Shown here: in pieces, positions 26,901 through 62,681 of the stretch
How positions within the stretch are numbered: the stretch's first letter is position 1
How the letters are laid out: the number at the start of each line of letters is the position of its first letter
Assembly: GCA_964016885.1 (NCBI GenBank)
Contig: OZ024740.1
Coordinates: forward strand, 366,420,001 to 366,484,000
Reading direction: 5' to 3'
DNA length: 64,000 nucleotides
Source of the DNA: Eledone cirrhosa
Taxonomy: Eukaryota
Notes under the pieces: model-generated
What the model saw: the letters and a program-made list of their open reading frames with translations, nothing else
Database searches by the model: none
What the model was told of the DNA's origin: nothing
Program-made: the position numbers and the translations under genes

Positions 26901-29191
26901 CAAACATAAACACTGAAACATGTACATACATACACACATACATAAATGGTAGTACGTACATAGAAGTTGCGAGATGAAATTAATGAAGTAGTTGAATAAG
27001 TAGTTTGTTGGTTGAGTCCATGGCAAGTGAATGAAGTATCTCAATTAGTTAAGAGAATTGTTGCTGTGAAATCTTGCCATGGTCACGGAAACCTGTAGTT
27101 GTAGTCACTTGTGGTATTGTGATATTGCTGTGGAGAAAAACAATTTTCCCCAATCACATGGGTATGAATTTACAAATAAACAAAACACCATTAATTTTTG
27201 TAGGTTTTTATTGGTTGCATGATTTACTTTGAAATCATGTGCAGTAATACTAAACAATGGAAAAAGGTATATGTATAATTGTAATGTTGATTGTGTGTGT
27301 GATGTTTAGAATTTCATGATAGTGAATTTACTAACCTGTGGTGTTGATGTTAGTAGCGAGCCCTCCTTAGTCAGCAGAGATGGCTAGCAAGTGTTTCTGT
27401 GTGGGACTATATGGTGAACTGTGCTGTGTGTATATTGCAGAGCAAAGAAATTAACTGTTCTGTGGTAGAGTGTAGAAAAATACTCTGCTATCCTGGTGTC
27501 AGAATCTCTTGTATTTACAAGGATTGTGCACTCAGAAAACATTAAACACATGGCCCCTGATAATTTCCTTTTAAACAAAAGCAATAAATCTAAATAGCAA
27601 CATTAGTATCTCAGTCTGACTGATGTTACAGGTCAGTGTGTGTCGGAACATGGGAACAGGTTTTGCTACACACCTATATACCATTTTTTATTCCTTTTGG
27701 TGTCGGTATTACGTAGATTGTCATCATCATCATCATCATCACTAACACAGGTAGCATCTATCCTACCATCTGTTCTTCCATGCTTTTATGAATTAGACAG
27801 ACTGTGCAGTGACACAGTTGGTAGCATTCCAAATTGCACCACAACAGTATATACGTGTATATATATATATATATACACACACATATACATACATACACAC
27901 ATACACACATAGACATACACATATAAACATACACACACATGTACACACACACAAGGATGGATAGACACACATAATTACATAAGCAATAAGACACACATAA
28001 TATACATTCATACGTGTGTCATATGGCCAGTCACATATATATATATACCCACACACAGACACACAGACACACAAATACATATAGACAAAATTACAGCTGA
28101 ACAGAGTTGCATGCATAAAATGTATACATATACATGTTTCATATACATATACATACATATTTACACACAAACACATACAGATAGAAAAATGACAGATGCT
28201 CAGAATTAAATAAGCAATCAAATCCATATAAAACATATGCATACATATGTCACGCACACACATATTACTCACACACACTCACAACCACACATGTGTGCAC
28301 TTTCTCACTCAGACACAGGCACACTATACATGTAAGTCATACACACAAACACACATGTGCACTTACTTAGTCGGACACAAACACATAAACACATATATAC
28401 TCACACATGTACCCATACACTCCCAGAAGCCCAAACACAAACATGTTCATATATAAATGTCCACACAATGTACATGTATACTCACTTAGACACATCATCA
28501 AAATCTCCAAATTCATCTCATATAAACAGTACTTCTAGAGATGCTTCGACTACTATTTTAACCACATACAAACATCCATTTAGCCAGACATGGAGCCATA
28601 AAGGAAGAATGGAGTAGGGGAGCAGAATAAAACAAATTTACTACTGTTATTCTACTTCTAGGTATTTGGATGGAGATTTTGACAAGATTCTTACTCTGTA
28701 TTCACTATAAAATAACATCATAAGCTTCCAGCACTATATTTTCAAGGAATACTTCTTTAAGGACGTCCTTCGTATAAAAGTTTGCTGAACAAAGAAGACA
28801 AAGATAACAATGTAACAACCGTAAGCAGCAGAGAAAGAAAAATCTAAAGCATAATATGATGTCATGTAATTTCACAATGCTATATATAAAATGTTTCACT
28901 TGTCTGCTCATGCTCCATATTTGGCATAGTTTTTATGGCTGAAGGCCCTTCCTAATGCCATCCTTCATACATGCTGTACTGAGTGTATTTTTCATGGTAC
29001 TACTACTAACACTTTACAGGCTGTAATGGATGTGTTTTTGCATGGTACCAATATTGTGTTGGGTGCACTTTATCATGTTACCAGCACCAGAGATCTTGTC
29101 ACATGCTGATTCAGACTGAAGGCTCCTCTTAAACTCTATATTGTGCCTGTCTCATTTAACTCATTAAAATTAACTTCCTTTATTCAGATTC

Positions 29192-29250
29192 GCTGGTATG
29201 TTTATTTTGGTGATAACCATTATTCAACAGCTATGACCTCATCAGACAGC
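29192..29250 (-). ncRNA. Decayed hammerhead ribozyme motif
   Basis: Minus strand: GCTGT-CTGATGA-GGT c ATAGCT..GGTTAT c ACC-AAAA(GAAA mutated)-TAAACA-TA-CCAGC. Confidence 0.6.
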
Positions 29251-29280
29251 TAGAACTTGAACAGAAAAAACAGAAAAACA

Positions 29281-29465
29281 TAATTGTCTCTACTTTAGGT
29301 ACAAGGCCAGCAATTACCCAGTGCATTACTGGTACTTTATTTTATCGACCCCGTAAGGATGAAAGGCAAAGTCAACCTCAGCGGGATTTGAACTCAGATC
29401 GTAAAGGGACGTAACTATGCTGGAAAGCATGGCGTCCGACCCTCTACTGATACTGCCAATCCACC
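29281..29465 (-). mobile_element. tRNA-derived SINE family A inserted in the left arm
   Basis: Reverse complement of 48952-49137. Confidence 0.9.
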
Positions 29466-29798
29466 GGAACAAAGTTTACCTCTGTTATTTTGATCTTTGA
29501 TGTGGCCAAACACTGTAACGTCGAGTCTCTCCTCACTATATATATATATATATATATATATATATATATATATATATATATAGTGAGGAGAGACTCGACG
29601 TTACAGTGTTTGGCCATATATATATATATATATATATATATATATGCCACCACTTCTTTGAGAAAACAAGACCATACTTCAGGACTGGCCACATCAAAGA
29701 TCAAAATAACAGAGGTAAACTTTGTTCCATCATTATGTTTTTCTGTTTTTTTCTGTTCAAGTTCTAGCTATCTGATGAGGTCATAGCTGTTGAATAAT

Positions 29799-30145
29799 GT
29801 GCGTGAACGACCCAGCATAAATGTGTTGAGAGAGAAACTGTGTTTGAGAGGGATAGAATGTAGTGTACGGGAGAGGAGACTGAGGTGGTATGGACATGTG
29901 ATGCGCATGGAGGATAACCGATGGGTGAAGAAGTGCCAGGAAATGCCAGTTGAAGGAAGACGTGGTAGAGGTAGACCACGAAAAACATGGGCGGAGGTGG
30001 TGAGAACAGACCTCAGATCATTGAAGCTAACGGTGGAGATGACGAAGGACTGTGACGAGTAGAGAGATGCTGTGCTGAATAAGACCCGTCCCACCCTTGC
30101 AAGCAGGGAAAAGCGGATGTAAAATGATGATGATGATGATGATGA
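29799..30145 (+). mobile_element. RTE LINE 3' fragment
   Basis: RRLRWYGHVMRMED..GRGRPRKTW and a (GAT)n tail. Confidence 0.9.
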
Positions 30146-30332
30146 TATATATATGTATATATATATATATATGTATATATATATATATATATATATATAT
30201 ATATATGTATATACATATATATATATATTTATATATATATATATATATATATATAATATAAAGGACGTAAAATAAGAAAATATTTTTTAAAAAAAATTTA
30301 AAAAAAATTTTTTTTTACTTACTTAAATTTTC

Positions 30333-30414
30333 ACTCCAACTAATTAGTTTCTGCAATGGGATAAAGACAGTTACGTAATCCAACTGTCGAGAATTCATTG
30401 CGTCATCAGGGAGT
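30333..30414 (-). ncRNA. Hammerhead ribozyme motif (array left arm, copy 1)
   Basis: Reverse complement of 32558-32639. Confidence 0.8.
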
Positions 30415-60508: not shown

Positions 60509-60517
60509 TATATATAT

Positions 60518-60898
60518 CATCATTCATCATCATTTCATTTTACGTCCGCTTTTCCCTGCTTGCAAGGGTGGGACGGGAACTGATTCTGGCTTGATTTCTA
60601 CAGCTGGATGCCCTTCCTAACACCAACCTCATTTACAGTGAGTGCTGGGTGCTTTTTAGCCGTGGGACCTCCACGACCACTTTACAGTGTAGGCTGGGTG
60701 CTTTTTTGCCGTGGCACCTCCACGACCACTTTACAGTGGAATCATAGGGACCCCAGTCCCTATCATCTCATTTCTACAGCTGAGTAAACTGGAGCAATGT
60801 GAAATAAAGTGTCTTGCTCAAGGAAACAACACATCACCCGGTCTGAGAATTGAACTCACAACCTTTCGATTGCAACTAACCACTAAGCCATGTGCTCC
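60518..60898 (-). mobile_element. SINE family B with internal duplication
   Basis: Reverse complement of 35667-36000. Confidence 0.88.
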
Positions 60899-62021
60899 AT
60901 ATATATACACACATATTGTTAACAGGGAAAACAGGTATTAATTAATGATCATGTTCATGAAGATATATACATATATAGAGGATAAAAATCTCTTTCAGTT
61001 ATGAATGACCAAGGGTTTTGCACCTAGTTCCCCTGCAAGGCACAAGCCTGAGTAAGGTGTTTTGTGGAAAATCAATCACCCATGCATACCAGCCCCCCCC
61101 CCCCCCCTTCACACCACTGATATTGTCCAAGTTAAAGGTCAATACAACTTGGCACTAGTTTCATTGCAACTAATTTCTGCAGCTGAAAGAACTGGAACAA
61201 CGTGAATCCAAATCTTTATCCACTAAGCTACGTGCTTTCACACACACACACACACACACACACACACACACACACACACACACACACTTATATATAAAAA
61301 CGAATGGATGTATATAGGTGCTTGGATGTAAACATGCATTATCTCATTATCTGTGTGAGTGCATGTGTATGGAAGCATGTACATGTCACATATGAATTAA
61401 AGATAGTTATTAAAGGAAATAAAATGTATTTTGTAATTCTGCAATTCTCTAAATTCTGTAATCCTATATAATTCCTATAATTCTATAAATCCTATAGAAA
61501 TGAACTTTTACTGGCACAAGGTTTAAATTTTTTCAAGTATTCAAGTATTATTTATAGCTGTGAAAGTAATTCCTCTAAAACTTAGCAAAATCAAATTTGC
61601 TCCAATTATTTGGACCCAGTTCTGTGAAAGTCATTGTTATCAGTCAAGGTGAGAAATAGTTTTAAACTATACAGCCAAAATTAGATTTAGTGCTTGATGT
61701 ATATCTACATACATATATACCTATGTGTAGATATATATATACACATGTGTATATATGTCGATCTGTCTGTCCCTCTCTCTCTCTCTCTCTATATATATAT
61801 ATATATATATATATATGAAAATTAGAGTTAAAACTCAATTGGAACCCTGTAACTATTAAGCTCAAAGTATAAATACTGAGCCGATTAATAATATATAGTA
61901 AGAAACACAGTAAACCGTGTGTCTAAAATTACAAGGGTTGAAAAACCACATTTGTTTGAAATTTTTAACCAAGAAGCAGACAGAATGATAAAATATACAA
62001 ACCGCCTCAATAACCATTATA

Positions 62022-62101
62022 TCTCTCGGACAGATTATCCCTAATCTGTTTCGCCCTGAGTGTGTTTGTAACAGATAATCCTGGGCTTCATCAGCGAGAG
62101 A
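62022..62101 (-). ncRNA. Type I hammerhead ribozyme motif, GUC site
   Basis: TCTCTCG-CTGATGA-a-GCCC..GGGC-GAAA-CAGATTA ggga TAATCTG-TC-CGAGAGA. All three stems pair perfectly. Confidence 0.9.
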
Positions 62102-62402
62102 ATCTGATTAAATGCCACAAACACTATTTGCCAACGTTCACACAGAAAGATGAATTTGTCACCTCGTGCGCCGCTAGTCAAACGTGGTAAGCGTGTATTG
62201 AATAGAAATAACAGTCCAACACACACAACTTAATAAGCTCAACTTGTGAGGGAGCAGAAATATATATGAAAATTAGAGTTAAAACTCAATTGGAACCCTG
62301 TAACTATTAAGCTCAAAGTATAAATACTGAGCCGATTAATAATATATAGTAAGAAACACAGTAAACACGTTGGCAAATAGTGTTTGTGGCATTTAATCAG
62401 AT

Positions 62403-62482
62403 TCTCTCGCTGATGAAGCCCAGGATTATCTGTTACAAACACACTCAGGGCGAAACAGATTAGGGATAAGCTGTCCGAGAGA
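62403..62482 (+). ncRNA. Type I hammerhead ribozyme motif, GUC site (one stem III mismatch)
   Basis: Mirror of 62022-62101. Confidence 0.87.
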
Positions 62483-62681
62483 TATAATGGTTATTGAGGC
62501 GGTTTGTATATTTTATCATTCTGTCTGCTTCTTGGTTAAATATTTCAAACAAATGTGGTTTTTCAACCCTTGTAATTTTAGACACACGGTTTACTGTGTT
62601 TCTTACTATATATATATATATATATATATATATATATATATATATATATATATATATATATTTATTAAAATAACAGATTAA

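Follow-up and report, generated by a model that had tools for sequence, protein, structure and literature searches.

Inverted hammerhead-ribozyme repeats at (TA)n microsatellites of Eledone cirrhosa carry the insertion footprint of Penelope-like elements and pair two fixed 3' ends

Penelope-like elements (PLEs) have been reported to lie most commonly in a head-to-head arrangement, with a tail on one of the two inverted repeats (PMC3846280), and inverted copies, one-sided tails and a bias towards (TA)n targets have been described for them elsewhere as well (PMC8557442). Pairs of hammerhead ribozymes on opposite strands, 100-700 bp apart, are also on record (PMC4209133). It has been reported that a PLE of the anole cuts and extends both strands of its target in vitro, with two start sites that bound the tail (PMC11167929), and retrozymes have been proposed as PLE derivatives (PMC7229834; bioRxiv 10.64898/2026.07.22.740005). 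The formation of inverted and tandem PLE insertions has been called unsolved (PMC8557442, PMC11167929). Here we analyse a stretch of 64,000 nucleotides from Eledone cirrhosa (assembly GCA_964016885.1, contig OZ024740.1, positions 366,420,001 to 366,484,000 of the forward strand), which we call the window, in which inverted repeats of five hammerhead families are present at five places: family A at 29 kb, family B at 30-34 kb, families C and D at 53 kb and family E at 62 kb. These loci almost certainly carry the PLE insertion footprint, and the elements themselves, being of a known kind with a known footprint, are ordinary. Their value is mechanistic: they follow a strict and testable rule which bears on the question of how such insertions are made.

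Each family has two fixed 3' ends, named here site A and site B, with site B located 55-118 nt downstream of site A, and the two outer ends of a locus are never the same site. This main regularity was overlooked in the preliminary description of the window, which had been made from its letters alone. The tail between the two sites measures 118 nt in family B, 81 nt in E, 97 nt in C, 91 nt in D, 99 nt in A and 55 nt in an intact PLE (L196), which was found in a flank and is used for comparison. Genome-wide, site A is paired with site B in 93 of 93 two-armed insertions of these six families in which both ends could be called (B 29/29, E 8/8, C 16/16, D 16/16, A 2/2 and intact PLE 22/22), for which the chance at even odds per arm is about 1e-28. 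Copies with a single arm are frequent (15 of the first 38 loci in B and 9 of 33 in the PLE) and both sites are used in them, about equally in family B, where eight copies end at site A and seven at site B. The pattern known from PLEs, an inverted 5'-truncated copy with a one-sided tail, was found at 16 loci of C and 16 of D.

All five inverted repeats of the preliminary description are present. Head-to-head arms, outward hammerheads and (TA)n ends are genuine at four of the loci, the 29-kb locus being degraded and rearranged. TA runs adjoin both outer ends of the B, D and E loci and of the C locus (53.19-53.63 kb), as had been noted, and the central (TA)n of the 29-kb locus is seen as a (TA)23 tract, while neither outer end of that locus lies at TA. 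The features of loci B to E are as follows.

30145-30260, no strand: (TA)n target on the left of family B.
30261-32000, minus strand: left arm of family B, made of three units and part of another, with its outer end at site A; hammerhead cores at 30409, 30968 and 31528.
32001-32072, no strand: junction of family B, a candidate tandem retrozyme with a 560-nt unit devoid of an open reading frame (ORF); an A/T homopolymer stretch between two 5' ends.
32073-33956, plus strand: right arm of family B, three units followed by the 118-nt tail, so that the outer end is at site B; cores at 32563, 33123 and 33690.
33957-34001, no strand: (TA)n target on the right of family B.
52898-53190, no strand: (TA)n target on the left of family C.
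53191-53457, minus strand: left arm of family C, which has the 97-nt tail and its outer end at site B; the core is changed to CTGATTA.
53458-53628, plus strand: right arm of family C; outer end at site A; same core change; the centre is a palindrome without a spacer.
About 53629-53657, no strand: short TA run between C and D.
53658-53762, minus strand: left arm of family D; outer end at site A; core at 53756.
53757-53972, plus strand: right arm of family D, which has the 91-nt tail and its outer end at site B, and overlaps the left arm by 6 nt; core at 53784.
61790-61816, no strand: (TA)n target on the left of family E.
61817-62366, minus strand: left arm of family E, 1.2 units long, with an 81-nt tail and its outer end at site B; core at 62094.
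62367-62606, plus strand: right arm of family E, with its outer end at site A and its core at 62410; the junction is blunt.
62607-62665, no strand: (TA)n target on the right of family E.

Placement of the hammerhead on the minus strand in left arms and on the plus strand in right arms, as claimed earlier, is borne out at B, D and E, where a motif scan reveals type I folds in these orientations, with six intact copies at 30-34 kb, two at 53.66-53.97 kb and two at 61.8-62.6 kb. The claim falls short at locus A, which is devoid of an intact ribozyme, and at C, where both arms read CTGATTA in the core. This change is not read there in the other copies compared, and because of it the ribozyme of C in the window is likely dead. 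In a region of 264 kb (the window and 100 kb on each side), the hammerhead motif has 23 matches as against 0, 0 and 0 in three shuffles, a count far above chance. In six relatives of the 560-nt unit, 99% of the pairs of the family B ribozyme are kept and five pairs of stem II have changed in both partners; the covariation score was reached by none of 500 shuffles, though kin sequences can beat such shuffles. An Rfam scan of the window returned no hammerhead family and just microRNA-type matches on hairpins and microsatellites. RNA folding of single hammerheads gave weak z-scores, family B (-2.9) excepted, and is not used as evidence.

The (TA)n enrichment is also confirmed, as at least six TA repeats lie next to 43 of the 50 ends in family B and 42 of the 49 in the PLE, whereas (TA)4+ makes up 2.8% of the bases in the 264 kb. 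Compound microsatellites continue across the PLE loci L254 and L247, and therefore the TA tract must have pre-existed the insertion. A target-site duplication, if present, would be hidden within such a tract. Within the unit, most sites precede a TA-like sequence of 4-10 nt, and pairing with the (TA)n primer is likely for the short UA-rich stretches that directly follow most sites.

The reading that we prefer, and consider fairly probable, is that both target ends prime at the two fixed sites, likely on one RNA, and that the resulting complementary DNAs (cDNAs) are end-joined. A PLE enzyme would cut the (TA)n tract, and both DNA 3' ends would start reverse transcription, site A serving one of them and site B its counterpart. 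The two cDNAs would grow toward each other, stopping at the end of the template or where the enzyme falls off, and would then be linked by end joining of the microhomology type. A one-armed insertion would represent an event whose second cDNA was lost. Families B and E would be carried in trans by a PLE, and the 5' end of some templates would be the product of hammerhead cleavage. Priming from both ends with joining at the centre had already been proposed in the preliminary description. This part is supported by the pairing of ends, the non-nested arms and the junctions with microhomology or templated inserts, whereas the circular or multimeric RNA which it also invoked is unneeded for the stubs. 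A related process is twin priming of LINE-1, in which the two 3' ends of the target use a single RNA as template and microhomology mediates the joining of the cDNAs, the second site being variable and the arms non-overlapping. In contrast, both sites are fixed and close to each other here, so that the arms overlap as a palindrome.

A more specific form of the preferred reading is put forward tentatively. In this symmetric twin priming, one enzyme complex with one RNA would offer the two sites separately, A to one end of the cut DNA and B to the opposite end, and the RNA may be a monomer cut by its ribozyme, on which copying continues beyond the 5' end through circularisation or an end-to-end jump. 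If true, it would explain the inverted copy, the one-sided tail, the pseudo-long terminal repeat (from the ribozyme cut to site B, 177 nt in the intact PLE) and the retrozyme arrays, and the hammerhead would gain a role in vivo.

Insertions of endonuclease-bearing PLEs (PMC3846280; PMC8557442, Fig. 2 legend) share with our loci the head-to-head inverted 5'-truncated copy, the tail at one end, partial tandems, a hammerhead near the 3' end and the (TA)n bias. The head-to-head arms, the tail on one side and the (TA)n bias of the preliminary description are thus already in print for PLEs. These papers give tails of 30-40 nt in place of the 55-118 nt found here, use the words 'often' and 'optionally' for pairing features that we find in 93 of 93 insertions, and offer self-priming or endonuclease resolution as the mechanism. 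Neither strict pairing of site A with site B nor twin priming was found stated for PLEs in the literature searched, subscription papers and supplements being outside its scope. The element Poseidon PAc of Anolis, studied in vitro (PMC11167929), has two internal start sites downstream of the hammerhead that bound the tail, an AT-rich target and cutting and extension of both strands, features comparable to those read from our loci. However, that study reports no difference between the strands in start site, no homology there and no reads that end at the ribozyme cut, whereas here the two ends always differ, a short UA match is present at most sites and three loci end at the cut.

Identity of the families was examined from their sequences, on which grounds C and D are 3' stubs of two PLEs, probably of the Hydra clade. 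About 2.3 kb upstream in family C, coding frames for a reverse transcriptase (RT) and an endonuclease follow on the hammerhead's strand. DKT, a CxCx5C linker and a C-terminal endonuclease were read by eye in translations of L281 and L193. The related copy L281 has an open frame of 750 amino acids (aa), in which RKN stands at the likely place of the RWK motif and no CCHH was seen by eye. Hydra-clade PLEs (PMC8557442) share with the C frame the DKT, the linker and the C-terminal endonuclease, together with the hammerhead and the (TA)n target, but differ in the 3' untranslated region, which is about 2.3 kb long in C, and in the RWK described for them. In family D, collinear tblastn matches to the C-type protein lie upstream in 12 of 20 loci. 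The coding frames of C and D have the same sense as the hammerhead, and the RNA 3' ends therefore face outward. Both families reach 1-3 kb into PLE coding sequence and are thus no short tandem ORF-less units, the stubs in the window spanning just 170-270 nt. Units of the five loci had been described as unrelated, which does not hold for all of them: C and D share the hammerhead frame, and C, D and A share the tail motif ACTCC...TTGAGTG.

The units of B (560 nt) and E (451 nt) are tandem and ORF-less, with no ORF of 100 aa within them and with arrays of up to 12 units, at first look among the top 40 of 617 and the top 40 of 1673 candidates, respectively. They fit non-LTR retrozymes (those lacking a long terminal repeat) in sequence. 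Animal retrozymes of this kind (PMC7229834; bioRxiv 10.64898/2026.07.22.740005) are likewise made of AT-rich ORF-less tandem units with a type I hammerhead in each, but the units are usually about 300 nt long, shorter than those of E and B, and the inverted arms, tails and (TA)n targets seen in B and E are absent from the accessible parts of the descriptions compared. The footprint common to B, E and the PLEs links the spread of retrozymes to PLE enzymes by mechanism, besides sequence.

The comparison element L196 is an intact PLE with a 775-aa frame for RT and GIY-YIG endonuclease, a period of 4202 nt and 90 scored copies at about 100% protein identity. Pfam domains RVT_1 and GIY-YIG are present in it, as are the marks of the Neptune/Nematis type (DKG, a CX2-5CxxC linker and a hammerhead at the 3' end). 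In the intact PLE at L233/L237 (G000:C1:147.23-147.25 Mb, about 90 scored copies), which has amplified recently, an upstream frame of 459 aa overlaps the 775-aa RT-endonuclease frame by about 90 nt, with a probable frameshift or intron; an optional frameshifted ORF1 is described for PLEs (PMC8557442, Fig. 1 legend).

The preliminary description had inferred from these loci a family of RNA parasites. A separate ribozyme-bearing family with its own palindrome-making route would agree with the lack of an ORF in B and E and with the fact that no autonomous partner of either was found near diverged relatives. However, two of the five loci, C and D, are stubs of Hydra-type PLEs, an intact PLE leaves the identical footprint, and the derivation of retrozymes from PLEs has been proposed before (PMC7229834; bioRxiv 10.64898/2026.07.22.740005). 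We therefore regard a separate, new family as very improbable.

Structure of the arms suggests that two separate primings are highly probable. Neither arm contains the other in 27 loci (PLE L247, L254 and L265; E L070 and L079; 11 loci of C, 9 of D and 2 of A). This is clearest in the three PLE loci, in which the tail is confined to the B arm, and 0.8-1.8 kb of upstream sequence to the A arm. According to a published model (PMC3846280), a single priming is followed by self-priming or fold-back, by which the first arm is copied. Fold-back needs one arm inside the other, and its simple form is therefore excluded at the 27 loci; it also offers no reason why the second end should be the other fixed site. 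The exactly symmetric centres of C in the window and of L240, L244, L172 and L180 are as fold-back predicts, although they also fit two cDNAs running off one RNA end. Inverted stubs that end at neither site (L064, L266, L116) speak for fold-back as well, and locus A is readable in this way. As a general rule it is refuted by L247, L254 and L265, and strict pairing of the sites together with non-nested arms rules out the self-priming model as a general route. We hold it improbable as the explanation of these insertions, but it may apply to a minority of events. The inner ends are mostly unrelated, and the PLE junctions consist of overlaps of 0-13 nt or short templated inserts, the form to be expected of end joining.

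It has also been suggested that both arms begin at one site and that the endonuclease trims one of them back, here to site A, during resolution (PMC8557442). Trimming would predict the strict pairing too, and the anole enzyme is reported to cut AT-rich sites in its own repeat (PMC11167929). However, direct observation in vitro showed two start sites, which delimit the tail (PMC11167929). Moreover, the join with TA is equally clean for A ends and B ends, and either site is found in one-armed copies. We attach little likelihood to trimming, which is nevertheless compatible with the genomic data.

That both primings occur on one RNA molecule is, on balance, probable. When PLE arms are compared without the alignment spill beyond site A, 14 subfamily variants are common to both arms with none discordant, and 18 locus-private variants are common as well. 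In family B, the same marker is present in both arms at seven of eight informative loci. One template per event is favoured by these counts, while two transcripts of one donor are possible. Alternatively, the two ends might prime on two RNA molecules in an asymmetric enzyme pair, the arms being alike because one donor locus dominates the cell. This would explain non-nested arms equally well, and it is supported by the family B locus L349, whose arms are discordant at three sites. However, the shared subfamily and private variants would require a single donor each time, and in L240 and L266 the 5' stop of one arm coincides with that of its partner. The involvement of two RNA molecules thus appears unlikely.

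Several observations weigh against priming of both target ends at two fixed sites on one RNA. The tallied loci are top-scoring matches and no random sample, and their ends were called by eye from BLAST tables. Matches of D were picked with the tail in the query, so that the second arm alone is a test, and 13 of the PLE loci were picked as visible pairs. Inverted arms that end at neither site (L064, L266, L116, L134, L078 and L312) stand outside the 93, as do L270, which is masked, L082, a stub of 7 nt, and L124, L166, L168, L299, L304 and L309, which were not resolved. The margins of the non-nested D arms are small (9-102 nt). About 35 private variants are present on one PLE arm alone, and variants occur in some units only at L354, L355, L048, L057 and the PLE locus L248. 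Among the older copies, those of C and D, no other copy matches an arm as closely as its partner at just 3 of 7 C and 2 of 13 D loci, although this test has power for long overlaps only (3 of 3 for C overlaps above 700 nt). Site A of family A has no UA match. As to orientation, 6 of the 16 hammerhead elements in the 264 kb have an inverted partner on the 5' side, and one same-family pair located about 39 kb past the window (G000:C1:366522600-366523500) lies tail-to-tail. Its members, with like ends, stand across TA runs with 170 nt of other DNA between them. This pair, the sole counter-example to outward orientation in the region, we read as two separate insertion events.

Five of 57 PLE inner ends sit at the hammerhead cut, at three independent loci (L240, L245 and L266, from a hand-entered list), and each arm of L240 consists of one full unit plus a piece from the cut to the site. 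PLE arms that stop at the cut suggest a template with a cleaved 5' end and provide genomic evidence for cleaved RNA as template. The inner ends of B lie off the ribozyme cut, 18 of 58 being located in an A/T homopolymer stretch just 3' of it (unit positions 373-434). At the B locus L053, one variant occurs in all 12 units of the two arms; elsewhere in the genome it is present in a single unit, located on one arm of L349, where it may be a recurrent change. The uniform array of L053 fits repeated copying of a monomer; a lost donor or a later expansion would look alike. Mixed arrays point to multimeric templates in other events, and a circular template for B and E is a possibility that we raise with reserve. 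At L248 with L232 (G000:C1011) and at L048, a variant is present in the outer unit of the B arm and an inner unit of the A arm and absent from the outer unit of the A arm; two primings may sometimes lie one unit apart on a multimer.

Palindromes may also arise as fold-backs during library preparation or assembly, and the junction of E at 62 kb has no bridging record in four public runs. However, the arms differ in their fixed end sites, flanks and point changes, and left-to-right joints of C and D that stem from loci elsewhere are contained in short-read contigs of one sample (two runs), which makes an artefact hardly credible.

Locus A is a poor example of the system, and its features are listed here.

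29167-29508, minus strand: left arm of family A, degraded; core GAA changed to AAA; short interspersed nuclear element (SINE) at 29280-29465; stops 16 nt short of site A, without TA.
29503-29645, no strand: centre of locus A; (TA)23 between two inverted copies of a 34-nt sequence foreign to the family, followed by (TA)15.
29642-29799, plus strand: right arm of family A, cut inside hammerhead stem II by a fragment of an RTE long interspersed nuclear element (LINE).

Both arms were damaged by the SINE and LINE insertions, which are of later date. In the left arm, family sequence skips to the 34-nt sequence across a TGGCCA repeat, and an exact search for the 34-nt sequence finds no other copy. 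The centre may derive from a read-through RNA that included flank of its donor and of which two copies were made and joined in TA; alternatively, the locus underwent fold-back at a later time. The family A consensus has an intact hammerhead and the same tail motif as C and D; no tandem copy was found among 30 loci of the family and no adjacent ORF in the 8 checked. A relative of family A forms a sixth hammerhead element in the window (plus strand, motif at 18424, element about 18300-18640), which is one-armed and has a full tail ending at (TA)8.

Other repeats are also present in the window. An inverted repeat at 60026-60508 has arms of 130 nt and adjoining TA runs, with no hammerhead found in it, and may be another PLE-type stub or a miniature inverted-repeat transposable element. 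A short repeat located between two TA tracts at 62666-62755 is likely another PLE end; it is present beside many loci and forms a perfect palindrome about 69 kb past the window. The palindrome at 58097-58284 consists of an inverted truncated SINE with flank. Broken frames on the minus strand at 43000-45100 resemble a PIF1-type helicase and a protease domain, and are presumably a Helitron fragment. Finally, the sequences at 36956-40240, 8637-11369 and 62735-63826 we take to be copies of RTE-type LINEs, one of them nearly full length.

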